Positions 2,966 to 64,000 of a stretch of DNA of 64,000 bases are shown piece by piece (within the stretch, counting starts at the first letter, position 1; the number at the start of each line of letters is the position of its first letter). The stretch spans positions 53,971 to 117,970 of the forward strand of contig JBAZQN010000001.1 in assembly GCA_041645165.1 (NCBI GenBank), written 5' to 3'. The notes under the pieces were generated by a model. It made no database searches and was not told the origin of the DNA. It saw nothing but the letters and a program-made list of their open reading frames with translations. The position numbers were made by a program, and so were the translations under genes. The DNA comes from Patescibacteria group bacterium (GTDB lineage: Bacteria > Patescibacteriota > Patescibacteriia > 2-02-FULL-49-11).

Positions 2966-3052
2966 AAAATTTTCAATTTTCAAGTCTCAATTATCAATTA
3001 ATTTTCAATTTATCAATGTTTGAAAATTGGAAATTGAGATTTGAAAATTATT
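2966..3052. repeat. AT-rich palindromic intergenic repeat, family C (tttcaattttcaa...ttgaaaattgaaa)
   Basis: Long imperfect palindrome: caattttcaagtctcaatt pairs with aattgagatttgaaaattg. Related copies lie at 6650-6755, 32897-33020, 34003-34125 and 63270-63400. Confidence 0.65.
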
Positions 3053-3062
3053 ATCATAATTT

Positions 3063-3992
3063 ATGTCTTGGTTTACCATCGCCATCATCGCTTATATACT
3101 TCTCGCGCTTGTCAACGTACTCGACAAGGTCATGATGGAGAATTTCGTGAAGGATGCGCGCGTGTATACGTTTTTGGTGGGAGTATTTGGGCTCCTCTCC
3201 ATCGTGCTCGCGCCCTTAGGATTGACCCTGCTCTCCGCGCCGTTGTTGGGGATCGCGCTTGTTTCCGGGATATGGATGTTTTTCGGGCTCCATTGGTTTT
3301 TCCGCGCGTTGAGTTTGGGAGAAGCTTCGCGGGTCATACCGCTCTCCGGCGCTTCCATCCCCACCCTTACCGTGCTGCTTGCCTTTATCGTGCTCGGTGA
3401 CACCTTTTCCCCGTGGCAGATGTCAGCGATCATCCTTCTCATCGCCGGAAGCGTGCTCCTCACCCATATACCGCAGGAGCACCACTGGTGGAATGCGGTG
3501 ATCAACCGTTTCCGCCATCCCCGCAAGTACCATGACGTGCTGCTTGCCGTGGGTTCGGGATTTGCGTTTGCGCTCTCCTATGTTCTTTCCAAGTACGTGT
3601 ATGACCAATCCTCATTTGTCACCGGTTTTATCTGGGGGCGCATTGGCACATTCCTCGCCGCCCTCTGTTTGCTCACCATCCCGAAGGTCCGCGCGCATCT
3701 TAAAGAAACATTCACCCATTTTATCTCTCCGAAAGGCGCCATGTTTTTCGGGAACCAAGGGTTAGGAGCGCTCGCAGTGGTGCTCCATAGCTATGCGGTG
3801 TCGCTGGGAAGCGTTGCATTGGTGCAAGCGCTGCAGGGCGTGCAATATGCCACGGTGTTTACGATTGCGATACTCGCCTCCATCTTCAGGCCGAAATTAT
3901 TGAAAGAATATCTCACCCCGCGGGTGCTCATGGAAAAATCATTTGCGATTCTTTTAGTCATCCTAGGGGTGGCGATGATAGCACTGCTGTGA
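3063..3992 (+). CDS. DMT/EamA-family membrane transporter
   Basis: About ten hydrophobic segments. The EamA-like signature ALSLGEASRVIPLSGASIPTLTVLLAFIVLGDTFSPWQMSAIILLIAGSVLL is present. Confidence 0.6.
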   Translation: MSWFTIAIIAYILLALVNVLDKVMMENFVKDARVYTFLVGVFGLLSIVLAPLGLTLLSAPLLGIALVSGIWMFFGLHWFFRALSLGEASRVIPLSGASIPTLTVLLAFIVLGDTFSPWQMSAIILLIAGSVLLTHIPQEHHWWNAVINRFRHPRKYHDVLLAVGSGFAFALSYVLSKYVYDQSSFVTGFIWGRIGTFLAALCLLTIPKVRAHLKETFTHFISPKGAMFFGNQGLGALAVVLHSYAVSLGSVALVQALQGVQYATVFTIAILASIFRPKLLKEYLTPRVLMEKSFAILLVILGVAMIALL

Positions 3993-4098
3993 GATGTATT
4001 TCGTATCACGTATTATGTATTATGGGCACGTTCACCGATGCCTAATACGTAATACCTACTGCCTAATACGAAAGGCATGAGAGGGTAGAATTCCATAT

Positions 4099-5391: not shown

Positions 5392-5517
5392 ATCCTAAAT
5401 ACTAAACAAACTCAAAATTTCCCGCTTCAGCGGGATCCCGCTTACCTTAAAAAGAAAGAATTCAAGGTGCGGGACAAAATTCAAATATTTTAGTTTAGTA
5501 TTTCGTGCTTAGGATTT
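5350..5517. repeat. repeat family A copy 1 (TIR aatcctaaata.../...tatttcgtgcttaggatt; internal cccgcttcagcggga hairpins), preceded by partial IR-R-like segment
   Basis: Near-identical organisation to 18809-19046. The TIRs and the cccgc..gcggga hairpins are read directly. Confidence 0.7.
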
Positions 5518-6679
5518 GGAATTTCTCATATTTATGGATTTTTTAGAGACCTTTATTCCATTCATAAGAAAGAAACGCGAACATGAGCGGCGCAAGAGGC
5601 GCATTTTGCACGTGGCGATGATTGCGGCGATTGTCATTGTTTTGTTATGCAGTGCGGCGGTGATTGCGTACCGCATGCGCAATCGCATTCCCGACGGCAT
5701 TGCACAGGAGTGGGGCGTGACGTTTTCAAAAAAATATGCAGAAGAATTGGGCATCCCTTGGCAGGACGTTTTTGTTGGCCTCCTTGATAACCTTCGCGTG
5801 CGCTTGATCCGCATTCCTGCGTATTGGGATGAAATTGAGCCAGTGCCCGGCCAATATCATTTTGCCGACCTTGATTGGATGCTTATGGAAGCTGACCGCC
5901 GAGGAGCGAAAGTTCTCATTGCCGTAGGCCGCAGGCTGCCGAGATGGCCTGAGTGTCACGATCCTCTTTGGCTCAAAGACGCGGACCAGCGCAGAACGTC
6001 ATCCCGCTTAGCGGGACCTCAATCGCGGAATAACGCGGAAAGTGAAGATGAGGCAAAAGAGGCGTTGCTGATGTATATTCGTACGGTGGTGGAGCGGTAT
6101 CGCAAACATCCGGCGGTGGCGGCGTGGCAGGTGGAAAATGAGCCTCTTTTAAGCGTATTTGGCATCTGCCCTCCTCCTGACAAGGCTCTTTTGGATGAAG
6201 AAATCAAGCTGGTGAAATCTCTTGATGAGAAGCCGGTTATCCTCACTGATTCAGGGGAGCTCTCGGACTGGATCGAGCTCTCGTCGCGCGCGGACATTCT
6301 CGGCGTGAGTTTATACCGTCTGGTGTGGAACCAGTATTTTGGGTATTTCCATTGGCCGCTCCCTGCATCATATTACCGGAAAAAAGCAGAGCTCTCTTTG
6401 AGTCGCGTCAAGGACGTGGTCATCACCGAGGTGCAGCTTGAGCCGTGGACTGGCGAGCCGATCATCGGAGTGCCAATAAGCGAGCAGCGTCGCACCTTTG
6501 ACCAAGAACGATTTCATGATACTATTGAGTACGCGCGCGAGACAGGGTTGAGGCAGATTTATCTCTGGGGGGCTGAGTGGTGGTATTGGATGAAGGTGCA
6601 GGGGTATCCTGAATATTGGGAAGGAGCGAGGGAAGTGTTTCATAAAAAATCTCAAATCCCAATTTCCAATGACCAATAA
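5516..6679 (+). CDS. membrane-anchored clan GH-A (GH5-like) glycoside hydrolase
   Basis: N-terminal TM helix. (beta/alpha)8-type motifs: acid/base WQVENEPL and nucleophile VITEVQLEPW. Exact start uncertain. Confidence 0.6.
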   Translation: MEFLIFMDFLETFIPFIRKKREHERRKRRILHVAMIAAIVIVLLCSAAVIAYRMRNRIPDGIAQEWGVTFSKKYAEELGIPWQDVFVGLLDNLRVRLIRIPAYWDEIEPVPGQYHFADLDWMLMEADRRGAKVLIAVGRRLPRWPECHDPLWLKDADQRRTSSRLAGPQSRNNAESEDEAKEALLMYIRTVVERYRKHPAVAAWQVENEPLLSVFGICPPPDKALLDEEIKLVKSLDEKPVILTDSGELSDWIELSSRADILGVSLYRLVWNQYFGYFHWPLPASYYRKKAELSLSRVKDVVITEVQLEPWTGEPIIGVPISEQRRTFDQERFHDTIEYARETGLRQIYLWGAEWWYWMKVQGYPEYWEGAREVFHKKSQIPISNDQ

Positions 6680-6755
6680 AATTCAAATTTCTAAATCCCA
6701 AATGTTGGATATTGAGGTTTGAAGTATTGATTGGGCATTGAGGATTGGGCATTAT
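6650..6755. repeat. palindromic intergenic repeat, family C variant (cccaatttccaatgaccaat ... attgggcattgaggattggg)
   Basis: Arms are reverse-complementary and share ttcaaat/ttgaa motifs with the other C copies. Confidence 0.5.
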
Positions 6756-18735: not shown

Positions 18736-18808
18736 AGTGGAATACCAAGCAATACCACATCCAAGAGGGGGATGGTTTTGGTAGCGATGAGGAAGAATAG
18801 TCATTGAT

Positions 18809-19046
18809 AAAATTCTAAACTCTCGCTACGTCCCGCTACGCGGGATCTAGCGTAGCTACGACGAGCTCTTATCTGGCGTAGCCAGATAAATTCGAAACCC
18901 TAAACAAGCACCAAATCTCCCGCCTCATCGGGATCCCGCCTACCTTAGTAATTCTCATTCAAGGAGCGGGACAAAATTCAAAACGTGTTTCGGTGATTTT
19001 GTCATTTGGATTTGTTTAGGATTTAGAGTTTCGGATTTAGGATTTT
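18809..19046. repeat. right inverted repeat (18809-18890) contiguous with repeat family A copy 2 (18890-19046)
   Basis: Same composite architecture as 5350-5517. TIR ccctaaac.../...tttaggatt and tcccgcctcatcggga hairpins. Confidence 0.7.
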
Positions 19047-19057
19047 TCAATGTTGGT

Positions 19058-23050: not shown

Positions 23051-23158
23051 TTTGATGGGAGAACTTTTTGTTTTTAAAAGCGAAACATATTGAGAGTGCA
23101 GCACAATGATATAAAAAAATTTGCGCGCAGATCATCAGCCACAATCAGAACCTCAATC

Positions 23159-23228
23159 TGTAGCGTCGGAGCTTGTCTCCGACCAATCAGCTGCGATCCG
23201 TTGGTGGCAGACAGGCTGCCACGCTACA
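23159..23228 (-). repeat. REP-like family R copy (reverse orientation)
   Basis: gtagcgtcggagcttgtctccgacc...ggtggcagacaggctgccacgctac is the reverse complement of the R consensus. Confidence 0.7.
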
Positions 23229-23539
23229 GTGTATCACTATGTGGACGAACGCGGATTAACGCGGATATTATCATAGGGTCCACTGTCATTCCTAAGCGTT
23301 TGTTTAGGAATCAGGTGAAGCGCGCAACCGATAACGTGCGGCCTTCGGCCCAGTCCTTCAGGATTAAGTCTTCAGGATGACCCCGAGTGGGCAGTTACAC
23401 CCCGCGTCTATTGACAGAGAGAGAGAGTTCGTGGTAAGAAAGTGGTGACAAAAACTTTTTTTCTTTGTCAAAATTAAATAAGTCCCACGTATTTTTTATC
23501 GTGGGGATTTTTGGTTCATTTAAAATTTGGAGATAAATT

Positions 23540-28989: not shown

Positions 28990-29942
28990 TAGGTAAAAGG
29001 ATAATGATCCAGATTTAATAATTTTCGGATCGGTTCATAGAGTTGGAGATGGAGACGCATGGACTCGGCGTACGGCGTGAGCTGACAATCGCCGTTATGC
29101 AAAATATCTTCAATGACCGGTGCGGTAAGCTGGCTTTGGTAGGGAATGACTGCTTCGTGTTCTATCCATTTCCAGTCTTGTTGAGGCGTTGCCATCCACA
29201 TTTTTCGCTCATTTTCGCGTATAATAACGCGCGCCTGTGGATTGCTTATCGTAATCATAATCGGCGCGCTGTCCTCTAAGAAATGAGAGAATACGCCTAG
29301 ACTGCCATCTTGAAATGTTACCGTCAGCGTTCCATTGAGCTCGAAAAACCCCAGACGTTTACTGGGGATGAGCTTATTGTCCAGCAGATCGGTAGAAACG
29401 GTAAATTCGCGGCAGTCATTGAGATATGACAAATGATCGACGAAATGAATGGCGTTGCACGCGAGGCCCCAGTTTGCCCCGCTTACATGATAATAGAGCC
29501 TGTCGCCTCGTAGTAATTTTTTACAATCGCGATACGCGGGCATGACGCGCATGGGGCAGTTTACCCACGCTTTGATATTGAGCGCATTTAATTTTTTTTG
29601 CGCCGCGTCGTAATCGTCCGGCCGATTAAAGAGGATTTTCTCGAGAAGCAAATAACGCACATGGGCGCGGGCAAGCAGCTCTTCAAGCGCCTGTTTTCTC
29701 ACCGCGGAGGATGTGGCAATGATCGCGACGTCAATATCGGGAAGAGATGCCGGCAGCGTGTTCACGAAATTTATTTCATGCGGTGCGGCGCCATCCACGC
29801 TGTCACATCGTTCTTTCGCCGTTTTTAACGATTCGGAGGACGGATCAACCACAATGATCTGCAGCGGCAGCGATACCGTTTTAAGGGATTGAAGATGCCG
29901 GCTGCCTATATTCCCGGCACCAATAAGTATAATATTTTTCAT
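28989..29942 (-). CDS. Gfo/Idh/MocA-family NAD(P)-dependent oxidoreductase
   Basis: MKNIILIGAGNIGSRHLQSL...LLEKI. ORF-track start at 30017; ATG 29942 gives a 4-nt overlap with the upstream gene, suggesting coupling. Confidence 0.6.
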   Translation of the reverse strand: MKNIILIGAGNIGSRHLQSLKTVSLPLQIIVVDPSSESLKTAKERCDSVDGAAPHEINFVNTLPASLPDIDVAIIATSSAVRKQALEELLARAHVRYLLLEKILFNRPDDYDAAQKKLNALNIKAWVNCPMRVMPAYRDCKKLLRGDRLYYHVSGANWGLACNAIHFVDHLSYLNDCREFTVSTDLLDNKLIPSKRLGFFELNGTLTVTFQDGSLGVFSHFLEDSAPIMITISNPQARVIIRENERKMWMATPQQDWKWIEHEAVIPYQSQLTAPVIEDILHNGDCQLTPYAESMRLHLQLYEPIRKLLNLDHYPFT

Positions 29943-31861
29943 AGGGCATTGGCATTGACAGCCTTTTTGTTTTGCTCCGCCAGGATTTGCAGAAACGAAT
30001 GTTCCGCTTTTTCCCAATCTTCCGGCGTGTCAATGTCGAGAGAGTATTTTCCATCCATCACGTATGCCCGCACCTGTTTGCCGTAGAGTGAGGGTTCAGA
30101 ATTAAGCAAGAGCTCGGTCTTTAAGGCATAGATCGCCCCGTTGCGATAATATGTTTTTGGCAATTCCTGGCGTCGTGGCACAATGCCAGATACCGGCTGG
30201 TCCGTATAAAGTTTAAGCATATTCGTGTCCTGCATGACAAACTGCCAATGGGGGTTAAAATGTCCCGGCACTTCGGTGACGCTCACCACTGAGTCGGCCC
30301 CGGATGTGAGCAAGAGTTCTATTGCTTCGCGGATATGATAATGCATCCTGCCGGGTGAAGTTGGTTCCAGCAGGACGACATAGGCAGGCAAATAGCCCTG
30401 ATTTTCTTTTAGCCACTGAATTGCGTGTTGGAGCACGGCAAGGGACGGGGTATGATCTTGTGCCAGCGCAGTTGGGCGCAGGAAGGGCACGTCCGCGCCC
30501 GCGTGCCGGCCAATATCGGCAATTTCCGCGTCATCGGTGGAGAGGATTAGACGGTCGAGTTTCCCCGATCGCACGCAGGCGTCGATTGTCCAGGCAAGGA
30601 GCGGTTTGTCGCAGAATAGTTTGATATTTTTTCGGGGGATTGATTTAGATCCGCCGCGCGCCGGCACGATTCCTAAAATTTCCGATTTTGGCTGGGAATG
30701 CGTCGAGATATTAAAATCTCTGAATTGTTTTTGGATCCCTGTTTGCCAGATGCGATCCGAGCGCAATTCGGTCAAAAATCGTTCCGTACTTTTGCCGTCA
30801 CCGAAATGGTTATTAGGCGGGAATCTGGTGAGCTGGGAAAATTTCCGAATATGATCAAGAATCGTTTCATGGTGGTAATCGCAATGGAATATACTCGCGT
30901 GCGTGTCAGGAGGGATTCGGTTTGCCTGGCGTGAACCTATGTTGATAGTAGGTACGCCGAAAAACGGAGCCTCCCGTATGCCAGCGCTGGAATTGCCAAT
31001 TATAAAAAGCGCGTTTTGCAGAAACGTAAGGTAATGCTCAAACCGCATGGAAGGGAAGATGCGGAAGCGGGGATGGGCCATGATTTTTTCCCGATAGACG
31101 CTTAAGATCAGATCATTTCCGTGATCATTATTAGGATAGATTACAATGTAATGCAAGCCAGAAGCGATGAGAGCATCAACCAGTTTTTCTGTTTGCTCAG
31201 GAATGCGATGGAGTTCAGTGGTAACGGGATGATGCCCCAGAATGGCATATTCGGAAAAAGGTATTTCGTATCGCTGTTTCGCCTCTGTGAGCGTAGGGAG
31301 ATCGGGCGAGCTCATGATGTCAAGATCAGGAGAACCAATGATGTAAATATGGCGTTCGTCTTCGCCTAGCTGTTGCAAGCGGCGTTTTGCTTCGGTATTG
31401 GAGACAAAATGGATATGGGCGAGTTTACTTATGGCATGGCGGATAATTTCATCCACTGTGCCGGAAATCTCGCCGCCTTCGATGTGGGCGACGAGGATAT
31501 TATTGAGCGCGCCGACAATCGCGCCGGCAAGCGCTTCCACGCGATCGCCGTGGATGACGATCATGTCCGGCTTGAAAAGCTTCACGTAGTTACCAATTCC
31601 TTCAATAGTATGCGCGAGAATCGTGTCCATGGTGCCATGTTCGGCATCGTTAATGTATTGATAGACATGCGGAAAGCCGAGTTTCAAGATTTCTTCGCCG
31701 GTGTATCCGTATTTTTCGCTCATGTGCATTCCCGTGACAAAGACGGATACGTCGAATAAATCCAGTTTGATAATTTCCTGAATCAGCGGCTTGATTTTTC
31801 CGAATTCTGCTCGCGTGCCGGTGAGATAGACGATTTTACGTTTCATACAAAATACTCCCAC
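29939..31861 (-). CDS. neuCA: bifunctional UDP-N-acetylglucosamine 2-epimerase (hydrolysing, NeuC/LegG-like) / CMP-nonulosonate cytidylyltransferase (NeuA-like) fusion
   Basis: N-terminus KIVYLTGTRAEFGKIKPL...VTGMHMS (NeuC). C-terminus ILGIVPARGGSKSIPRKNIKLFCDKPLL (NeuA/CMP-KDO-synthetase-like). Confidence 0.8.
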   Translation of the reverse strand: MGVFCMKRKIVYLTGTRAEFGKIKPLIQEIIKLDLFDVSVFVTGMHMSEKYGYTGEEILKLGFPHVYQYINDAEHGTMDTILAHTIEGIGNYVKLFKPDMIVIHGDRVEALAGAIVGALNNILVAHIEGGEISGTVDEIIRHAISKLAHIHFVSNTEAKRRLQQLGEDERHIYIIGSPDLDIMSSPDLPTLTEAKQRYEIPFSEYAILGHHPVTTELHRIPEQTEKLVDALIASGLHYIVIYPNNDHGNDLILSVYREKIMAHPRFRIFPSMRFEHYLTFLQNALFIIGNSSAGIREAPFFGVPTINIGSRQANRIPPDTHASIFHCDYHHETILDHIRKFSQLTRFPPNNHFGDGKSTERFLTELRSDRIWQTGIQKQFRDFNISTHSQPKSEILGIVPARGGSKSIPRKNIKLFCDKPLLAWTIDACVRSGKLDRLILSTDDAEIADIGRHAGADVPFLRPTALAQDHTPSLAVLQHAIQWLKENQGYLPAYVVLLEPTSPGRMHYHIREAIELLLTSGADSVVSVTEVPGHFNPHWQFVMQDTNMLKLYTDQPVSGIVPRRQELPKTYYRNGAIYALKTELLLNSEPSLYGKQVRAYVMDGKYSLDIDTPEDWEKAEHSFLQILAEQNKKAVNANAL

Positions 31862-32883
31862 TTTAACTGCATATCTTCCTCTAGATTAACGATTGCATTT
31901 TTACCTATTATACGGAAGAAGTCAACTGCTTTAATCTCTCCTGTGCCGGGACGTTTGACCCAGATGTTTCCGTAGTTCAGTTGCTCTCCTTGTTTAATTG
32001 GTTTAATGGTCACGACGCTCGCGTATGCAAAATCGATCGTCGGTTGCTCATCGGGAAGAATTGTCTTCTCTCCTCCGCGCGCTTCAAAGATTGCACGGCT
32101 GCCATGAATAAGCTCTTTAAGCTCTTTTAAGTCCATAGATAGAGGGATGTCAGGCCCTGGCCATGTTTTATCAGAGGTAAAATGCCTTTCTAAAATAGAC
32201 GCGCCAAGCGCGGTCGCGCCGTAGCATGCATAATTGCCGATAGAATGGTCGCTTAATCCAAGCACCGCATCAGGGAACGCTTCGCAAAGCTGCGCCAGCG
32301 CGCCAAGGCGTATTTGAGGGTAGGGAGTGGGGTAGAGGGAAGTGCAGTGCATGAGCGCATAAGGTACGCTCCGTGCGCGGAAAATGTCAACTGCGCGCAC
32401 TATGGATGAAATATCATTCATCCCGGTGCTCAAGATGATGGGTTTTCCAAATGAAGCAATATGGTCTATGAGAGGGTAATTATTGCATTCTCCAGAGCCT
32501 ATTTTATAGGCAACCACCCCCATCCGTTCCAGGCGGTCGGCAGCCGCGCGGGAAAATGGTGTGGAGAGATAGATCATTCCGAGCGATTCAGTGAGGCGCT
32601 TCAATTCCCCGTCTTGTTCTGCAGTGAGCGCACAGCGGGCCATAATATCCCAGATGGATTCTTTTGCATTGCCGGGTATGGTTTGTTTGGCTGCCGGCAC
32701 CATTTCGTCTTCAATGACGTGGCATTGAAATTTTACAATTTCAGCGTCGGCGAGGCGCGCGTCTAACACCATGCGTTTCGCTTTTGTGAAGTCGCCTTCA
32801 TGGTTGATGCCAATCTCCGGGATAACGAGGGGAGGGCAATCAAGTCCTATATTCCTACTGCCGATTTGTATAAATGGATTCAT
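31843..32883 (-). CDS. neuB: N-acetylneuraminate/legionaminate/pseudaminate synthase (NeuB family) with C-terminal SAF domain
   Basis: VIPEIGINHEGDFTKAKRMVLDA...IVKFQC. C-terminal SAF: VTIKPIKQGEQLNYGNIWVKRPGTGEI. Confidence 0.85.
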   Translation of the reverse strand: MNPFIQIGSRNIGLDCPPLVIPEIGINHEGDFTKAKRMVLDARLADAEIVKFQCHVIEDEMVPAAKQTIPGNAKESIWDIMARCALTAEQDGELKRLTESLGMIYLSTPFSRAAADRLERMGVVAYKIGSGECNNYPLIDHIASFGKPIILSTGMNDISSIVRAVDIFRARSVPYALMHCTSLYPTPYPQIRLGALAQLCEAFPDAVLGLSDHSIGNYACYGATALGASILERHFTSDKTWPGPDIPLSMDLKELKELIHGSRAIFEARGGEKTILPDEQPTIDFAYASVVTIKPIKQGEQLNYGNIWVKRPGTGEIKAVDFFRIIGKNAIVNLEEDMQLKWEYFV

Positions 32884-32896
32884 AACTTCACATCAG

Positions 32897-33020
32897 TAAT
32901 TTTCAATTTTCAAGCATCAATGTTCAAATAATTTTTAATGACCCAATGTTCAATGTTTGAAAATTGTTTCATTGGAGCATTAAATGAAAATTGGAAATTG
33001 ATTATTGAAAATTAACCAAT
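32897..33020. repeat. family C AT-rich palindromic repeat (copy 3)
   Basis: taattttcaattttcaagcatcaatg...tttgaaaattg. It is the inverted counterpart of copy 4 at 34003-34125. Confidence 0.65.
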
Positions 33021-34001
33021 CTTTTTAAACATTACTCTCATATGATTGCTCAATCCTTGTTTATCGATAATCGCCTGCATGACCGGGATGAAGTCCCGTA
33101 ATCGTTCATGGTAGTCAAATCCATCCTCGTATTGTTTCTTGTACAGGTAGTCCATCACATCGAGGCCATAATAGTCAAGGGAATGAATTATAAAGCCGGT
33201 CTTGTGTGCGAGAAACTCAAGCGACATGCGGTCAAAAAAACACAAATGTTGGAAAGGAAGAAGAGTATTTTGTTCGCCCTGCATAAGATAGTAAGCGAGG
33301 GAATGCACATGGGGAGTGTAGGCGAGCACGTAGCCTCCGGGCATAAGCTTTTCATTGAGCGCAGTAAACGTGGCGGCGGGATCAGTCAAATGCTCTAGCA
33401 CATCGAACATGGTGATGATATTGTAGCCCTTGATAGGCTCATTTTCCAGCTGGACCTCTTCCACATGAAGCCCGCGTTTCTTGCAGATTTCAACGAGAAA
33501 ACGAGCGAGTTCTATTCCCTTATAGGCGATGCCTTGATCCTTGAGGTAATCGATAAAATAACCAGGGCCGCAGCCAAGGTCGAGTATTTTCATCGCTCTG
33601 CGGGGAATATCGGAAATTTTTTCTTCAATATATTTCATGCGTTCCGGCGCATAGGTTTGTTTCCGGTACTCGTAGGTATCAATAATTTCTCTCGTGGTAT
33701 CTTTTACATAGGCGTCATCATCATAGATTTCAATTTTTTTCAGCGCTTCCCATTTTATAAGAGGAGATACCAAGTGGCATTGGGCGCACTCAAACAGTTG
33801 GTATTCTCGATAGGACAGGTACGCAAACCCTTCCTTGCCCGCGCAGAGCGGGCAGGAAAACTGGTCAGGAGACAGGCAGGCATCTTTGCATTGATCCATT
33901 ATTTTATGCCTATATTCGAGCATGTTCTTGAAGAAGTCCTTGCTCCTTAATTTTTTTGGATCGATGTCGAAGATTTTATAGTCTTTCAGGATATCGCGCA
34001 T
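33012..34001 (-). CDS. SAM-dependent methyltransferase with N-terminal Cys4 zinc-ribbon (sugar C/O-methyltransferase-like)
   Basis: CPLC...CAQC then ILDLGCGPGYF. Architecture as in TylC3/TcaB9-type sugar methyltransferases. Flanked by inverted family C repeats. Confidence 0.65.
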   Translation of the reverse strand: MRDILKDYKIFDIDPKKLRSKDFFKNMLEYRHKIMDQCKDACLSPDQFSCPLCAGKEGFAYLSYREYQLFECAQCHLVSPLIKWEALKKIEIYDDDAYVKDTTREIIDTYEYRKQTYAPERMKYIEEKISDIPRRAMKILDLGCGPGYFIDYLKDQGIAYKGIELARFLVEICKKRGLHVEEVQLENEPIKGYNIITMFDVLEHLTDPAATFTALNEKLMPGGYVLAYTPHVHSLAYYLMQGEQNTLLPFQHLCFFDRMSLEFLAHKTGFIIHSLDYYGLDVMDYLYKKQYEDGFDYHERLRDFIPVMQAIIDKQGLSNHMRVMFKKIG

Positions 34002-34002
34002 A

Positions 34003-34125
34003 CCAATTGATAATTTTCAATTTTCAAATACCAATTTTCAAATAATTTCCAATGACCTAATTTCCAAACGTTTGAAAATTGAGAATTGATGCATTGATTG
34101 AAAATTGAGCATTGAAAATTACTGA
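34003..34125. repeat. family C AT-rich palindromic repeat (copy 4, inverted relative to copy 3)
   Basis: Reverse complement begins cagtaattttcaatgctcaattttcaatcaatgcatcaat, matching copy 3. Confidence 0.65.
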
Positions 34126-35345
34126 ATCTGATGTTTAAGTATCCACTCACCGCCTTTTTGTTCCCATAGGTGCGGCGTGCGGAAATAGTTGACGCGTTCC
34201 CAAAATCGCTCTTCCGCAATGCCTGTGTATTCCAGAAATTCCTTGAAATATTGATGAGGGAATTCTTGGTCAAACCGATGGACTAAAGCCACGCCTTCCT
34301 CGCGCGTAATTTTTCCATTCCTGATTTCCTGCGCGGCGTCATATGTCGCGCGCCCGATGCCGAACTTGATGAGCGTGGTGTAGTAATGGAAGGGATCGAT
34401 CTTGTCGTCAATGCTTGAATATTTGGAATAACTTCCTTCAGTGCGTTCTTTATTCGCCACGAATCCGGTGTGTTCTGCGGAATAATAAAAATTTTCCTGC
34501 GGATCCCATTTTAAATAGTAGCCGAGATAGTGGACCTGTATGCCCGCTTCCTTAATTTTATTTTTTGCCTCTGGGAGATATGGATTGAGATCATTTATGG
34601 ACACCGCGTGTTCTTTTATCAGGTCGCTTGCACGGACGCCGCCTAAAAAGAGATTATCGAAATTAATATCCAGGGCAAAAAAATCTTCTTTCATTACGGG
34701 GACGTCATTTTCTTTGATATTATTGCCGTATTCAGCCTGGTTTTCCCCGTAAAATACGAGGGGTATATGATACATCGCCGCGAATTTCGGTCCGATGTGG
34801 CGCTGTCCGATGATGAAAGGCTGGAAAGGATGGAGTAGGTTTTCAAATGCAAATTTAGTCAAGAGACGGTGTACGTGGCCGTTGGGGGTAAAGAGGATAT
34901 TGTCAAATCCTCCCACATGGCTCCAGTTCGTGAAATTTTGCCAACCGGTTTCGGTATAAAGATGGGGAGCCCAGGTTACCGTGAGCGGGTTCATGCCATA
35001 CTTATATTTCAGCACATGGGCAGTGAAGCCGCTGTCTTTGCCGCCCGAACCGGGCACGATGCAATCATAGCGGCCATCCTTGCTGCGATATTTGTCGCAA
35101 AGCGCGATAAGCTCTTTTTCACGCGCAATCCAATCTATCGTATTGTCTTTCATCCACGCATACTGGCACGCGCTGCAGACTCCTTGCTGATTGAATTCAA
35201 TAGTGGCCTTGCGCTCTTCTTTATTGGATTTGAATTCCACCGTGGAGCTGGGGCGCTGATTGGAGATTACGCATCGGGTGCAAAACTTGACGGTCAACGG
35301 GAGGCCATAACGGCCATATCCCGAATCTGAAATGGTATTTGTCAT
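34119..35345 (-). CDS. N-acetyl sugar amidotransferase (PP-loop ATPase; WbuX/PseA/LfnA family)
   Basis: PP-loop DCIVPGSGGKDSGFTAHVL. ORF-track start at 35423; ATG 35345 (MTNTISD) gives a 4-nt overlap with the hisH-like gene. Confidence 0.75.
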   Translation of the reverse strand: MTNTISDSGYGRYGLPLTVKFCTRCVISNQRPSSTVEFKSNKEERKATIEFNQQGVCSACQYAWMKDNTIDWIAREKELIALCDKYRSKDGRYDCIVPGSGGKDSGFTAHVLKYKYGMNPLTVTWAPHLYTETGWQNFTNWSHVGGFDNILFTPNGHVHRLLTKFAFENLLHPFQPFIIGQRHIGPKFAAMYHIPLVFYGENQAEYGNNIKENDVPVMKEDFFALDINFDNLFLGGVRASDLIKEHAVSINDLNPYLPEAKNKIKEAGIQVHYLGYYLKWDPQENFYYSAEHTGFVANKERTEGSYSKYSSIDDKIDPFHYYTTLIKFGIGRATYDAAQEIRNGKITREEGVALVHRFDQEFPHQYFKEFLEYTGIAEERFWERVNYFRTPHLWEQKGGEWILKHQIQ

Positions 35346-35977
35346 AGCGACGGTATAAGTCGGATAAAATTCTCGATAATGCGCAATCCCGCGTTGCCGC
35401 TCTTCTCGGGGTGGAATTGGCATCCGTATACGTTATCCATCCTGACTGCTGAACAGAATTTCATGCCGCCATATTCGGTCACGGCGAGGATATGATCAGG
35501 ATTTTCAGGATTCAGAATATATGAATGCACAAAATATACGTGCGTTCTTTGAGGTATGCCATCAAGAATTGTATTTTTCCACGAACCATCACCGGGCGCA
35601 ATGGGACTCCAATTGATATGGGGCACTTTAGCGCCTGGCGCAAGGGGAGGGAATTTTTCAACGTTCCCGGGAATAATCCCAAGTCCATCCCAGGCGCCGA
35701 ATTCAAATCCTTTTGAGAGGAGAATTTGCGCGCCCAGGCAGATGCCGAGCACGGGTATGCCCTGGCGGATGCGGGATAAAAGCGGCTCCCTCAGCCCGCG
35801 CACCCGCAGGCCTTCCATGCCCGCGTGAAATGCGCCATCACCCGGAAGCACGAGCGCGTCTGCATTCAAAAGCTCATCTGCTTCTTCGGTGAGTGAAGCG
35901 TTTGCATATTTTTTCAGCGCCTTATGGAGGCTGTAAAGATTGCCTACGCCGTAATCTACGATAGAAACATTTTTCAT
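35342..35977 (-). CDS. imidazole glycerol phosphate synthase HisH-like glutamine amidotransferase subunit (WbuY-like)
   Basis: VSIVDYGVGNLYSL, with the catalytic Cys in GICLGAQIL and a HPE C-terminus. Start set at MKNVSIV, giving a 4-nt overlap with the hisF-like gene. Confidence 0.8.
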   Translation of the reverse strand: MKNVSIVDYGVGNLYSLHKALKKYANASLTEEADELLNADALVLPGDGAFHAGMEGLRVRGLREPLLSRIRQGIPVLGICLGAQILLSKGFEFGAWDGLGIIPGNVEKFPPLAPGAKVPHINWSPIAPGDGSWKNTILDGIPQRTHVYFVHSYILNPENPDHILAVTEYGGMKFCSAVRMDNVYGCQFHPEKSGNAGLRIIENFIRLIPSL

Positions 35978-38992: not shown

Positions 38993-40039
38993 TCAAAACG
39001 GCCCTTTAAATTTATTCTCATAGCTATAGAATTCTTCTCCACTTAGGTCAGTTTCAGAGAGCCCTAATTTCTGTTCAATGGCCTTGATAATCTGTATTGC
39101 ATTTGGGTAAAATTTATTCTCGAGCGGCCGGGTCGTAGGGCACGGTGTCTCAGCAAACCCTATTCGCGTAATAGGAGATTTTAATTCATTGAAACAATGT
39201 TCTTGCACGCGCGCTGCGACTTCGGCGCTGAAACCGCAGTTAAGCCAGTCATAATCCACGACGATGCAGTGCCCCGTTTTTTTTATTGAATCATATATCA
39301 GGGTGTAATCAAGGGGAGAAATAGTTCGAGGATCGATGACCTCGACGCGCACTCCTCGGCGGGCAAGGATCTCCGCTGCTTTCACTGCCTCTATGACCAT
39401 CCATGAAACGCCAATCACCGTGACATCGGTTCCTTCACGGATACAGCGGGGAACGCCAAGCGGTTCAAGGTAATTCGGGTCTTCTGGCACTTCGCCAGGC
39501 GTGTCATAAAGCCATCGCTGCTCGATAATGAGAACCGGATTATCATCACGGATGGCAGATTTGAGCAAACCTTTCATGTCTGCGGCAGTGGAAGGAAGCG
39601 CCACTTTGAGTCCGGGGAGGTGGGCAAAGAGAGCGTGGAGAGTTTTGCTATGCTGCATGCCTTGTCCCCATCCGCGGCCAATGACCGTGCGGATGGTGAG
39701 CGGTACCTTAAGTTTGCCTGCGGAGGTATAGCGCATGCTGGTAACCATGTTAGCCAGTTGGTTTAGCGTAAGAAGGAGGAAATCTACTCGAATGTGCACA
39801 TTGACCGGCCGCAGCCCCATTACCGCCGCACCCAGCCCTATGCCCATAAGCGCATCTTCAGAAAGCGGTGTGCTGAAATATCGTTTCGCGCCAAATTGTT
39901 CCAACAATCCTTTGCCGCTACCGAAGGTACGCTTGAAGTCTGCCACATCCAAGCCGTAGACAAACACACGCTCATCGCGCTCCATTTCCTCACGGAGTGC
40001 TTCAGTGATAGCTTCGCGGTACGTTATTATGCGAGACAT
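38993..40039 (-). CDS. TPP-dependent 2-oxoacid dehydrogenase E1 component, beta subunit (transketolase-C-like)
   Basis: ITYREAITEALREEMERDERVFVYGLDV and C-terminal transketolase-like blocks. Confidence 0.75.
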   Translation of the reverse strand: MSRIITYREAITEALREEMERDERVFVYGLDVADFKRTFGSGKGLLEQFGAKRYFSTPLSEDALMGIGLGAAVMGLRPVNVHIRVDFLLLTLNQLANMVTSMRYTSAGKLKVPLTIRTVIGRGWGQGMQHSKTLHALFAHLPGLKVALPSTAADMKGLLKSAIRDDNPVLIIEQRWLYDTPGEVPEDPNYLEPLGVPRCIREGTDVTVIGVSWMVIEAVKAAEILARRGVRVEVIDPRTISPLDYTLIYDSIKKTGHCIVVDYDWLNCGFSAEVAARVQEHCFNELKSPITRIGFAETPCPTTRPLENKFYPNAIQIIKAIEQKLGLSETDLSGEEFYSYENKFKGPF

Positions 40040-40040
40040 A

Positions 40041-40997
40041 TTATAATGCGTAAATATCGCTGTAGAGTTCCTGCGGATCGGGAAACGAGGCTATTTTTGC
40101 TTTCCGAACGCTTTCAGTCAATTGTTGTTGCACTGATTCCTCATACCTCTTCAGGTCGTCGTTCATCCCTTGGGAGAACAATTTCGTACGTTGCAGTTCG
40201 AGGGGATCCCGCGCTTTCCATTGTTTGTATATTTCTTCTGAGCGGTATCCCGCATGGAAGTCGGTATACATTCCGACGTGTTCATAGTAACGGTAGTACT
40301 TAAAGTGGAGAAAAGCTGGCCGTTGATCGGAGCGGAGCTGGGCAATTGCTTGAGTAGTGGTTTGATAGATTTGTTGTACGTCTGTCGTTTCATTTGCATA
40401 TGCATTGCAGTCAAATTGTCGCACAATATCAGTAATTGAACGATAGCCATGCCGTTCTTCCGTCGAGGTATGGATTGCAAGATCATTGTCTTCGCAGATA
40501 AAGAGAATAGGGAGTTTTTTTAAACACGCAAAATTAATGCTTTCCCAGAAAACACCTTCATCAGTCGCCCCATCACCAAAGAATACCGCCGTTATTCTTC
40601 CCGTCGCAAGATATTGTTGAGCAAGAGCGCTTCCTACCGCCATAGGGATGGTGGTGCCCACTACTGCGGAGGTTGCGACCAGTCCGTGTTCAGGCGAGGC
40701 GATATGCATTGATCCTGCCTTTCCTTTCTGCGTACCTGTCGCTTTGCCGTAGAGTTCACAGAAGAATGCGTCAGTTTCCATGGTCCTCGCGAGGTAGATG
40801 CCATGGCTGCGGTAGGTGCCGAAGAGGTAATCATCCTTTGCAAGCGCTTGTAGCACGCCTGCCGCAATGTGTTCACCTCCGACATACAAGTGGCAGGGAG
40901 TCTTCATTTCATCCTCTTCATAGTGCGCTCTGATTTTCTCTTCCGTGGCGCGGATGAGGTACATCTTTTTGTAGAGTTCGAAATTGAGGTTATCCAT
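40041..40997 (-). CDS. TPP-dependent 2-oxoacid dehydrogenase E1 component, alpha subunit
   Basis: ThDP-binding GDGATDEGVFWESINFA motif. Directly upstream of the beta subunit, separated by 1 nt. Confidence 0.75.
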   Translation of the reverse strand: MDNLNFELYKKMYLIRATEEKIRAHYEEDEMKTPCHLYVGGEHIAAGVLQALAKDDYLFGTYRSHGIYLARTMETDAFFCELYGKATGTQKGKAGSMHIASPEHGLVATSAVVGTTIPMAVGSALAQQYLATGRITAVFFGDGATDEGVFWESINFACLKKLPILFICEDNDLAIHTSTEERHGYRSITDIVRQFDCNAYANETTDVQQIYQTTTQAIAQLRSDQRPAFLHFKYYRYYEHVGMYTDFHAGYRSEEIYKQWKARDPLELQRTKLFSQGMNDDLKRYEESVQQQLTESVRKAKIASFPDPQELYSDIYAL

Positions 40998-62466: not shown

Positions 62467-63264
62467 ATGAAATTTAAGTTAGGCATTATAGGAGTCGGAA
62501 TGGTCGGCGGCGCGGTGTACGCGTACTATCCCGATGCTATTCCTTACAGCCCGCGGAAATATCCGCAGAATAAGGAAAAAATTAATGATGCAGATATCGT
62601 ATTCGTGTGCGTTCCCACGCCATTTATGAAAGATGGCGTAGGGTTTGATCTGTCTTATGTGCATGACGCAATTTCACTATTGAAGGAAGGGAAGACAGTG
62701 GTCATAAAATCAACCGTCATCCCGGGCACTACGGATGCCTTGCAGGCGCAATATCCCCAGCATAAATTCCTTTTCAATCCTGAATTCCTGCGCGAGGCAT
62801 CAGCTAATGAGGATTTCAAAAATCCGGACAGGCAGATTATCGGCACTACTGCGCAGAGTGAAGCCGCAGCCCGTGAATTAATGGGAATCCTCCCTCCCGC
62901 GTCGTTTAGCAAAATTGTTCCGGCAAAAGAGGCAGAGATGGTGAAATATTTCGGGAATACCTTCTTAGCTACGCGCGTTATCTTCGCAAACCAGATGTTT
63001 GACTTGTGTAAAAAGCTTGGAATCGATTATGAATTAGTGAAAGAAGCGGCATCAGCCGATCCCCGGATCGGGCCTTCTCATTTTAATATAGATCAGGATG
63101 GCTATCGCGGGTATGGCAAAAAATGCCTGCCCAAAGACACACGCGCGCTCCTGCAGCTCGCTGTACAGACGGGGGTGAATTTGGAACTATTAAAGACGCT
63201 TGAGGAGATTAACCACGAGCTCACCGGCGGCGTGGACAAAGAAGCAGACCCTTACGGTTTGTGA
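62467..63264 (+). CDS. ugd: UDP-glucose/GDP-mannose dehydrogenase family protein, unusually short (265 aa)
   Basis: N-terminal Rossmann LGIIGVGMVGGAV, FVCVPTP, NPEFLREASA, and the catalytic Cys context GYGKKCLPKD. It ends about 130 aa short of typical family members. Confidence 0.55.
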   Translation: MKFKLGIIGVGMVGGAVYAYYPDAIPYSPRKYPQNKEKINDADIVFVCVPTPFMKDGVGFDLSYVHDAISLLKEGKTVVIKSTVIPGTTDALQAQYPQHKFLFNPEFLREASANEDFKNPDRQIIGTTAQSEAAARELMGILPPASFSKIVPAKEAEMVKYFGNTFLATRVIFANQMFDLCKKLGIDYELVKEAASADPRIGPSHFNIDQDGYRGYGKKCLPKDTRALLQLAVQTGVNLELLKTLEEINHELTGGVDKEADPYGL

Positions 63265-63269
63265 GAATC

Positions 63270-63400
63270 ACAAACCGTAAATCCAAATTTCAAAGTTCAA
63301 ATGTCAAATGAACGACCAATGCCAAAATTCCAATATTTCAATGTTTGGAATTTAGAATTTGAGATTTTATTAGAAATTTGAAATTGGGGCTTTAGATTTA
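63270..63400. repeat. family C AT-rich palindromic repeat (copy 5)
   Basis: aaatccaaatttcaaagttcaaatgtcaaatg...caatgtttggaatttagaatttgagatttt...gaaatttgaaattgg. Confidence 0.55.
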
Positions 63401-63408
63401 TTAAAATT

Positions 63409-64000
63409 ATGCGTATTCTTGTTACAGGCGGTGCCGGTTTTATCGGCGCTCATCTCTGCAAAGATCTACTTACAAAAGGTCACGAAGTTGTGTGTCTTGA
63501 TAATTTTGTGACCGGAAAAAAAGAGAATCTTGGGGATCTTCTGAAGCAGAACAATTTTTCTCTCATTATACATGATGTATGCGAACCCTTGCCTCCTGTA
63601 CTTGGTAAAGTAGATCTTGTGTACCATCTCGCGGCCATTGCCTCTCCGTGGAAATACCTTGAACAGAAATTATTTACTTTGAAAACAAATATTTGGGGCA
63701 CTTATCATGCGCTTGAGTATTGCCGCGCGAACGGAAGCGCTCTTATTTTTTCTTCCACCTCGGAAGTCTACGGCGATCCTGAAGAGCATCCTCAAAAAGA
63801 GGAATATTGGGGACACGTGAATCCCATTGGCCCGCGCGCCTGTTACGACGAAGGAAAGCGCGCGGCTGAATCGATGATTACTAATTACCAGGAAACGTAT
63901 GGAATGCAGTGCGCGATAGCCCGGATATTCAACACCTTCGGACCCCAGATGGCGCTTGATGACGGCAGGCCGGTCATTAATTTTATCTCAAAAGCATTGA
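63409..64000 (+). CDS. uxs: UDP-glucuronate decarboxylase (UDP-xylose synthase), 5'-partial, runs off window
   Basis: ATG 63409 then MRILVTGGAGFIGAHLC...VNPIGPRACYDEGKRAAE, the classic UXS signature. No stop before position 64000. Confidence 0.8.
   Translation, partial: MRILVTGGAGFIGAHLCKDLLTKGHEVVCLDNFVTGKKENLGDLLKQNNFSLIIHDVCEPLPPVLGKVDLVYHLAAIASPWKYLEQKLFTLKTNIWGTYHALEYCRANGSALIFSSTSEVYGDPEEHPQKEEYWGHVNPIGPRACYDEGKRAAESMITNYQETYGMQCAIARIFNTFGPQMALDDGRPVINFISKAL

Follow-up and report, generated by a model that had tools for sequence, protein, structure and literature searches.

Heptamer-built hairpin elements at gene junctions of a Patescibacteria nonulosonic-acid cluster and their relatives in metagenome contigs

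Imperfect palindromes of ~100–150 nt, such as the Correia/NEMIS elements of Neisseria and the ERIC elements of enterobacteria, lie in transcribed intergenic regions and fold in the mRNA; NEMIS are processed by RNase III, and ERIC affects mRNA stability. A further kind of dispersed intergenic hairpin is built from heptamers, as in Xanthomonas, where two convergent intergenic arrays of a heptameric simple sequence repeat (SSR) are able to form a stem-loop, most of the arrays being transcribed (Rehm et al. 2015, PMC4692102). Here we describe an AT-rich hairpin family (family C) that is an addition to this already known, heptamer-built kind. Its starting point is a pair of copies, C3 and C4, on either side of a methyltransferase gene in a 64,000-nt stretch of DNA from a Patescibacteria group bacterium (contig JBAZQN010000001.1), the whole of which is referred to below as the window. 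Judged from their sequences, C3 and C4 are ordinary, independent members of a very abundant family that is lineage-wide in the Patescibacteria (candidate phyla radiation, CPR). The family is apparently undescribed; searches on the sequence itself and on CPR palindromic repeats found no description of it in the searchable literature.

Heptamer palindromes in the window

The methyltransferase gene (33012–34001) is flanked by the gene of a WbuX-family N-acetyl sugar amidotransferase (34119–35423) on its upstream side and by that of a NeuB-family nonulosonic acid synthase (31843–32883) on its downstream side, and all genes around the two copies are on the minus strand. C3 (32893/32897–33014) occupies the methyltransferase–NeuB spacer (128 nt), and C4 (34006/34011–34125) the WbuX–methyltransferase spacer (117 nt), so that both spacers (GC content, 0.16–0.26) consist almost wholly of the elements. 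Each copy is an imperfect palindrome of ~115 nt composed of heptamers of the CAATTTT type and of their complement, with an arm complementarity of 75–83%, in agreement with the positions and the palindromy given by an earlier reading of this DNA from its letters alone (the sequence-only reading). The element termini are TAATTTTCAA...TTGAAAATTA, with inverted-repeat ends and a palindrome that runs from end to end. The stop codons (TAA) of the methyltransferase and WbuX genes, seen as TTA on the plus strand at 33012–33014 and 34119–34121, lie within the right-terminal TTGAAAATTA of C3 and C4, respectively. As RNA of the transcribed strand, C3 and C4 have predicted minimum free energies (MFE) of −31.3 and −30.4 kcal/mol (z-scores, −3.7 and −3.8), a stability reached by none of 200 shuffled sequences.

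Five copies in total were recovered from the window with nhmmer (E = 1e-13 to 1e-26), every one of them between co-directional genes. In addition to C3 and C4, these are a short copy, C1 (2965–3051), between genes at 1297–2934 and 3063–3992 on the plus strand; C2 (6644–6759), with CAAATCC/CAATTTC units; and C5 (63272–63402), with CAAATTT/CAAAGTT units, between a UDP-glucose dehydrogenase (UGDH)-like gene (62467–63264) and a gene starting at 63409. The three bear out the further copies that the sequence-only reading had placed at gene boundaries near 2966–3052, 6650–6755, and 63270–63400. A weak degenerate match (18950–19050; E = 0.0046) corresponds to the right arm of a composite, larger palindrome (~18800–19050). 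The core 16-mer AATTTTCAATTTTCAA occurs 12 times in the window at ≤2 mismatches, against 0.18 expected. Pairwise identity among the window copies is 53–79%, with C3 and C4 as the closest pair (79%). The statement that these two are reverse complements of each other is true but trivial for palindromes: each copy being palindromic, C3 and C4 are necessarily inverted repeats of each other, and they in fact align slightly better in direct than in inverted orientation (79% vs 75%; in a second alignment, 78.4% vs 73.2%). Both are 83% identical to elements on other metagenome contigs, above their mutual 79%.

Some further features of the window copies may be recorded here. A GH42-like open reading frame (ORF; 5516–6679) extends ~35 nt into C2, its C-terminal residues being encoded by the repeat, and the left arm of the family consensus, (AATTTTC)n, is stop-free in all frames. 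For the same organism, short-read assemblies from Logan (SRR8449827) end inside C4 (L001, at position 37 before the methyltransferase) and inside C5 (L135, 45 nt past the UGDH stop). Among the matches listed, the named homologues of the UGDH-like protein are from Patescibacteria such as Parcubacteria, Nomurabacteria, and Uhrbacteria.

A hairpin family at gene junctions and within 23S rRNA genes

An element of the family is ~110 nt long and consists of about eight tandem CAANNNN heptamers (mostly CAATTTT), a short centre, and an inverted NNNNTTG array. Of the distances from one CAA triplet to the next, 59% are exactly 7 nt (135 elements), and CAATTTT accounts for 377 of the 718 units, the next most frequent being CAATTTA, CAATTAT, CAATTTC, and CAAATCC. 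When 38 elements of the window and of metagenome contigs are aligned, a position-specific consensus over several units emerges, (T/A)AATTTTC AATTTTC AAnnnnC AATTTTC AAT(G/C/A)AAT TTTC AATGAnnnAATTTTCAA (A)(C/T)G TTTGAAAATTG ..., and the elements are therefore a family, not just generic low-complexity sequence. The fold of this consensus is a hairpin of 53 pairs. A scan with a pattern of 28 bases, AATTTTCAATTTTCAA-N30-50-GTTTGAAAATTG, matched more than 117 metagenome contigs, giving in plenty the additional copies that the sequence-only reading had recommended searching for, and had no match in 2.9 million viral contigs. With a profile, at least 151 elements (140 unique) were found in the 627 kb of the matched contigs, averaging 111 nt in length and −31.8 kcal/mol in best MFE. 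Copy density ranges from five in the 64 kb of the window to 11 in a single 14.3-kb contig (L035). Among the 101 elements located away from contig ends, 97 are intergenic (76 between co-directional, 14 between divergent, and 7 between convergent genes) and four lie within a called ORF; the median spacing is 7.5 nt past the upstream stop codon and 9 nt ahead of the downstream start codon.

The closest architectural analogue of these elements is the inverted pair of heptameric SSR arrays, represented by GGGAATC in Xanthomonas and by the STRR heptamers of cyanobacteria (Rehm et al. 2015, PMC4692102). The elements share with it the 7-nt units, the complementary arm, and the intergenic location (97/101), and, as in the Xanthomonas arrays, a site keeps its type of repeat between close relatives although the repeat differs in length and sequence. 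They differ in that the units are AT-rich (CAATTTT) and devoid of G-quadruplex potential, that a multi-unit consensus is common to many Patescibacteria contigs, and that copies are also present inside 23S rRNA.

Several of the metagenome loci carrying elements are rRNA operons. The 23S gene of L035 (1–2909) has five elements inside, which together explain ~700 nt beyond the span of the model, and one more lies in the 23S–5S spacer. In the 23S gene of L075 (3402–6642), a family member with short GC-richer clamps (5398–5519) replaces the helix loop at Rfam large-subunit (LSU) positions 1206–1228, which we take to be helix 45, the classical site of an intervening sequence (IVS) removed by RNase III. 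This member is an extended hairpin in place of such a loop, as an IVS is, the window copies lying in mRNA spacers. Like the 23S IVSs, which are found at helices 25 and 45 and are excised by RNase III, members of the family extend the helix-45 loop by a hairpin of 120–180 nt that is polymorphic between near-identical alleles. A 177-nt clamp-plus-heptamer hairpin of the L075 gene (6055–6231) stands in place of 15 nt in the L081 and L063 alleles (99–100% identical), and the difference is a presence/absence polymorphism by replacement, not by duplication. Two copies in the L075 gene are 89% identical over ~175 nt, clamps included; the 23S gene of L081 (4175–8124) has family-C hairpin insertions as well. 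No classical IVS is known to belong to a dispersed intergenic family numbering hundreds of copies. Tsurumaki et al. 2024 (PMC11270868) reported numerous short insertions other than introns in CPR 23S genes, at known IVS sites cleaved by RNase III, and did not describe the present repeat family.

Another recurrent site is the nusB–rnc spacer, directly upstream of the RNase III gene, which contains a long hairpin in all four of the diverged genomes compared (RNase III proteins, 57–70% identical; L033, 2421–2589; L049, 847–985; L064, 5662–5740; L101, 3420–3518). The repeat unit is different in each; two of the hairpins are of the family-C type, and two are formed from other sequences. It is possible that this hairpin is an autoregulatory RNase III site. 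Position is kept with a change of units at the C5 site also, where relatives have a hairpin of similar size built from CTAAATC (L133) or from CCAATAC and GCCAATC (L134). Between L044 and L122 (83–97% nucleotide identity), every intergenic spacer differs, with hairpins of CAATTTT, TTAAGAT, and CGCGAAT heptamers and a GC-rich GTCATTCCCGC...GCGGGAATGAC. Overall, hairpin elements, often heptamer-built, occupy the gene junctions of these genomes, and the presence of a hairpin is kept more stably than its sequence.

Hairpin families besides family C are found in the window. A GC-rich palindromic family (GTAGCGTCGGAGCTTGTCTCCGAC / GTGGCAGACAGGCTGCCACGCTAC) is present at two or more intergenic sites (1033–1161 and 23158–23229). 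The composite palindrome at 18800–19050 has outer heptamer arms (AAATTCTAAACTCT... and ...TTTAGGATTTAGAGTTTCGGATTTAGGATTT), and its loop contains nested GC-rich palindromes of the 'CGCTACG' type, as if one hairpin element had been inserted into a second. A further heptamer palindrome (3993–4098) has GTATTAT/GTATCAC units on the left and CTAATAC/GTAATAC units on the right, with a 7-nt self-match of 0.51.

Other described classes were compared with the family. The 23S IVSs and NEMIS may be taken as its closest functional analogues. The elements differ from Correia/NEMIS and ERIC in the lack of a TA target-site duplication and in the divergence of their copies (64–79% identity within the genome), those of the latter being near-identical from a recent burst; Correia/NEMIS and ERIC have no heptamer periodicity, and there is no sequence similarity. 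The REP/BIME elements are likewise abundant, short extragenic palindromes between co-directional genes, but they are 20–40 nt long, have a conserved GTAG head, and are linked to a RAYT gene; the ~110-nt elements have no GTAG head, and no transposase, including the Y1 type (Y1_Tnp), was found in the Pfam-scanned window ORFs or among the recurrent neighbour families of 549 ORFs in 117 loci. REP/BIME identity was rejected on these grounds. Despite the terminal inverted repeats, a classical miniature inverted-repeat transposable element (MITE) was rejected too, there being no target-site duplication and copies that are only 53–79% identical within the window. A TIGR array of the TIGR-Tas systems (family definition, PMC12045711) would have a period of 36 nt and requires a Tas gene, whereas the period here is 7 nt, the palindromes are dispersed and single, and Pfam scans of the window ORFs detected no Nop-domain family. 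Rfam at its gathering score returned tRNA-Pro alone for the whole window and, at E up to 1, chance-level matches only for 32800–34200, and identity with a known Rfam family was rejected at both thresholds.

The methyltransferase slot in related clusters

The gene between C3 and C4 encodes a predicted S-adenosylmethionine (SAM)-dependent methyltransferase of 329 aa (Methyltransf_23, E = 2.9e-25), as the sequence-only reading had recognized; its CxxC-x18-CxxC motif is invariant in 115/115 homologues, and the 'Zn-ribbon' label attached to it by that reading is therefore reasonable. A scan with WbuX, made with one genome per species, led to 13 related clusters (best match, 79%), and was followed by tblastn searches with the window proteins and by look-ups of methyltransferase homologues. 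The order HisF–HisH–WbuX–methyltransferase–NeuB is seen in L002, L005, L014, L132, L136, and L139/L140, and L137/L138 have the HisF–HisH–WbuX–methyltransferase order too, with a cytidylyltransferase gene lying before NeuB. At least seven other contigs hold the methyltransferase in the same slot without the repeat, with spacers mostly of −4 to 16 nt. The junctions flanking the gene are 9 and 7 nt in L002 and 4 and 7 nt in L137; in L139, an ATGA overlap of 4 nt on the WbuX side is followed by a junction of 9 nt; and in L005, the WbuX–methyltransferase gap is 6 nt, and a second methyltransferase-like gene precedes NeuB. A profile built from the window copies detected zero family members in the L002, L005, L014, L136, L137/138, and L139/140 loci, L014 and L136 having different, GC-rich hairpins at the WbuX–methyltransferase junction. 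In distant clusters, the methyltransferase gene is located elsewhere (L004) or there is none in this slot (L003).

The closest relative is L132, a 5.2-kb NCBI metagenome contig with 90.7% nucleotide identity across WbuX–methyltransferase–NeuB–NeuC, in which the codons for conserved residues differ from those of the window in only 17.5%. The methyltransferase gene is retained in L132, and its spacers (111 and 112 nt) both contain hairpins unrelated to C3/C4, one with a GC-rich clamp, TATGCCCGCCTAA...TTAGGCGGGTATG, and the other formed from AAAATGC-type units. Homology to the window ends 2 codons before the WbuX stop and 1–2 codons before the methyltransferase stop, and restarts 3 nt before the ATG at the WbuX–methyltransferase junction and at the ATG itself at the methyltransferase–NeuB junction. 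Because neutral orthologous DNA should still be alignable at this divergence, the contents of the spacers were replaced or gained independently after the split, with the genes unmoved. These comparisons show C3 and C4 to be later additions to ancestrally tight WbuX/methyltransferase/NeuB junctions in a conserved operon for a sugar of the legionaminic-acid type.

By its conserved slot, the methyltransferase gene is native to the operon; it is stably paired with the amidotransferase gene and was probably inherited together with the operon. In Campylobacter and Legionella, the WbuX-like PtmG (Cj1324) yields the acetamidino sugar Leg5Am7Ac, which is N-methylated by the methyltransferase PtmH (Cj1325) (PMC3766260), and by analogy with the PtmG–PtmH pair the enzyme encoded here is likely a functional partner of WbuX. 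The assignments (WbuX, TIGR03573, 368 bits; NeuB and the gene following it, Pfam and NCBIfam) indicate a cluster of the nonulosonic-acid type, legionaminic or pseudaminic. Other genes located there on the minus strand encode HisH- and HisF/WbuZ-like proteins, a glycosyltransferase, GmhB, and GmhA. The gene following NeuB (29939–31861, minus strand) encodes a fusion of a NeuC-type UDP-GlcNAc 2-epimerase and a CMP-sugar cytidylyltransferase in a single 640-aa ORF, the two being separate genes in several related clusters (L003, L004, and L139). Adjoining GmhA/GmhB within the sugar-biosynthesis operon, a pair of pyruvate/acetoin-dehydrogenase-like E1 alpha and beta genes (38993–40997) is unusual company for a nonulosonic-acid cluster.

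Proposed RNase III tolerance and the alternatives

We consider it moderately probable that C3 and C4 are co-transcribed hairpin elements of this lineage-wide family, tolerated through RNase III, with fast turnover, and not carriers of genes. The elements would be transcribed together with the operon, and the RNA would fold into a long, imperfect double-stranded hairpin of ~50 paired positions, which RNase III would cut out or clip in the way known for the helix-45 IVS of 23S rRNA. By this analogy, the elements are probably RNase III substrates. A hairpin that can be removed would be tolerated inside rRNA and at translationally important junctions, and might also separate cistrons; its clipping would account for a hairpin persisting upstream of rnc. 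Spread and turnover would proceed by routes other than cut-and-paste, more likely by replacement at existing hairpins or junctions together with heptamer slippage. From the loop-replacement events and the lack of duplications, one may speculate that template switching or conversion at hairpins takes place, along with slippage. A bolder version, in which heptamer hairpins spread without transposase or target-site duplication by replacing hairpin tips and tight junctions, colonise 23S rRNA helices as IVSs as well as operon spacers, act in the latter as RNase III 'punctuation' that divides polycistronic mRNAs into short-leader units, and autoregulate rnc from its upstream hairpin, is offered only as a doubtful extension.

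Several results weigh against this reading or limit it. In the 38-sequence alignment, 80.6% of the cells are paired, as compared with 81.5% in partner shuffles, and double changes are fewer than in the shuffles; RNAalifold gave no consensus structure for the same 38 elements. Arm complementarity is 67% within an element and 63% between elements, and the alignment and the arms therefore provide no positive evolutionary evidence for selected RNA pairs. Folding energy has no strand preference (sense, 38; antisense, 37), nor is there any asymmetry of unit content, a symmetry that a DNA-level function, or none, fits equally well. In 118 elements, the lengths of boundary direct repeats equal those of a mismatched-flank control, and thus no target-site duplication was detected. 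Clustering of the 549 neighbouring ORFs in the 117 loci yielded no partner protein, only housekeeping families (the largest being IF-2, PilB, DnaK, AspRS, glycosyltransferase, pilin-like protein, LAGLIDADG endonuclease, RNase III, and NusB). RNase III cleavage is inferred by analogy only, and the stems, AU-rich with regular mismatches, are possibly poor substrates of the enzyme. The orthologous elements of L048 and L061 are 97.5% identical (117/120), compared with 91.5% in the coding flank and 86.5% in the other flank, which hints at constraint; what is conserved here is the sequence and not the structure alone, and this could point to protein binding instead. Finally, the metagenome sample is skewed to the CAATTTT subfamily by the requirement for an exact pattern, and the gene calls in its loci are those of a simple greedy ORF caller.

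The main rival to RNase III-tolerated RNA elements is a functionless repeat at the DNA level, selfish or neutral, in which heptamer SSR arrays arise and change by polymerase slippage and palindrome formation and are kept because intergenic hairpins are harmless. It agrees with the strict 7-nt periodicity, with orthologous spacers having different unit sequences, with the lack of covariation, strand bias, and target-site duplication, and with the over-representation of heptameric repeats in bacteria, including the inverted pairs of heptamer arrays in Xanthomonas (PMC4692102). The multi-unit, position-specific consensus common to many contigs, the 83% identity of copies to elements on other metagenome contigs, the L048/L061 elements that are more conserved than their flanks, and the recurrence of a hairpin upstream of rnc in four of four genomes together suggest constraint, however, and we regard a functionless repeat, selfish or neutral, as unlikely, if still a serious contender. 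A mobile promoter, with the TTGAAAA arrays acting as outward sigma-70-like promoters (TTGAAA-N17-GAAAAT or TTGTAA-N18-TAAATT) that would give the downstream gene a very short leader, agrees with the end of the elements at a median of 9 nt before the downstream start, with the rank of CAATTTA (= TAAATTG) as second commonest unit, and with a TTGAAA-17-GAAAAT match in the promoter scan (34041–34013, minus strand) ending 11 nt ahead of the methyltransferase ATG. Yet promoter-like matches in the region number 8, against 8.2 expected from shuffles; the gene-proximal arm shows no enrichment of TAAATTG units (33 vs 23, p = 0.23); GAAAAT is without the conserved first T of a −10 box; and copies are found in rRNA genes and convergent spacers, which makes this role improbable.

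A transcription terminator or attenuator shared between genes, suggested by long hairpins directly after stop codons, is very improbable. The stems are AT-rich, the hairpins lie within tightly packed operons and 23S genes that need read-through, and six or more T residues in the 9 nt after the hairpin are found in only 6–9% of copies; an intrinsic terminator with GC-rich stem and U-tract was rejected, considering also the low GC content of the spacers and the terminator scan, which flags no element. Of the 'shared AT-rich regulatory/terminator structure' considered by the sequence-only reading, the shared structure is thus retained as a dispersed hairpin family, and the canonical terminator is not. 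The other proposal of that reading, MITE-mediated insertion of a gene cassette as a route to glycan diversification, would make C3 and C4 the termini of a mobile element by which the methyltransferase reached the glycan island. The copies do flank exactly one gene and are mutually the closest within the window, and the position of the methyltransferase varies in distant clusters (L004 and L003). A composite transposon or cassette is nevertheless expected to leave relatives free of the repeat without its cargo, and L002, L005, L014, L136, L137/138, and L139/140 have the gene in place, at times overlapping WbuX by 4 nt, while L132 retains it beside different spacer elements. Target-site duplications are lacking, C3 and C4 are nearer to elements on other contigs than to one another, and two of five copies would fall in neighbouring spacers with a chance probability of ~0.30 (1 − C(55,5)/C(59,5), for the 59 spacers of the window). 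The sequence-only reading had itself advised comparing related islands and had named, as the outcome speaking against insertion, islands that always contain the methyltransferase with unrelated intergenic sequence, which is essentially what is seen; a cassette is extremely unlikely.

The methyltransferase gene is accordingly no evidence for cassette-driven diversification of the glycan, and a tempting story is removed. The copies break short-read assemblies. Through the family, a dispersed intergenic repeat is connected with the short non-intron insertions seen in 23S rRNA genes of the CPR, and the conservation of position with replacement of sequence provides a useful case for the evolution of hairpin repeats. 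Should the elements prove to be substrates of RNase III, they would influence how mRNA is processed in organisms in which gene expression has hardly been studied.

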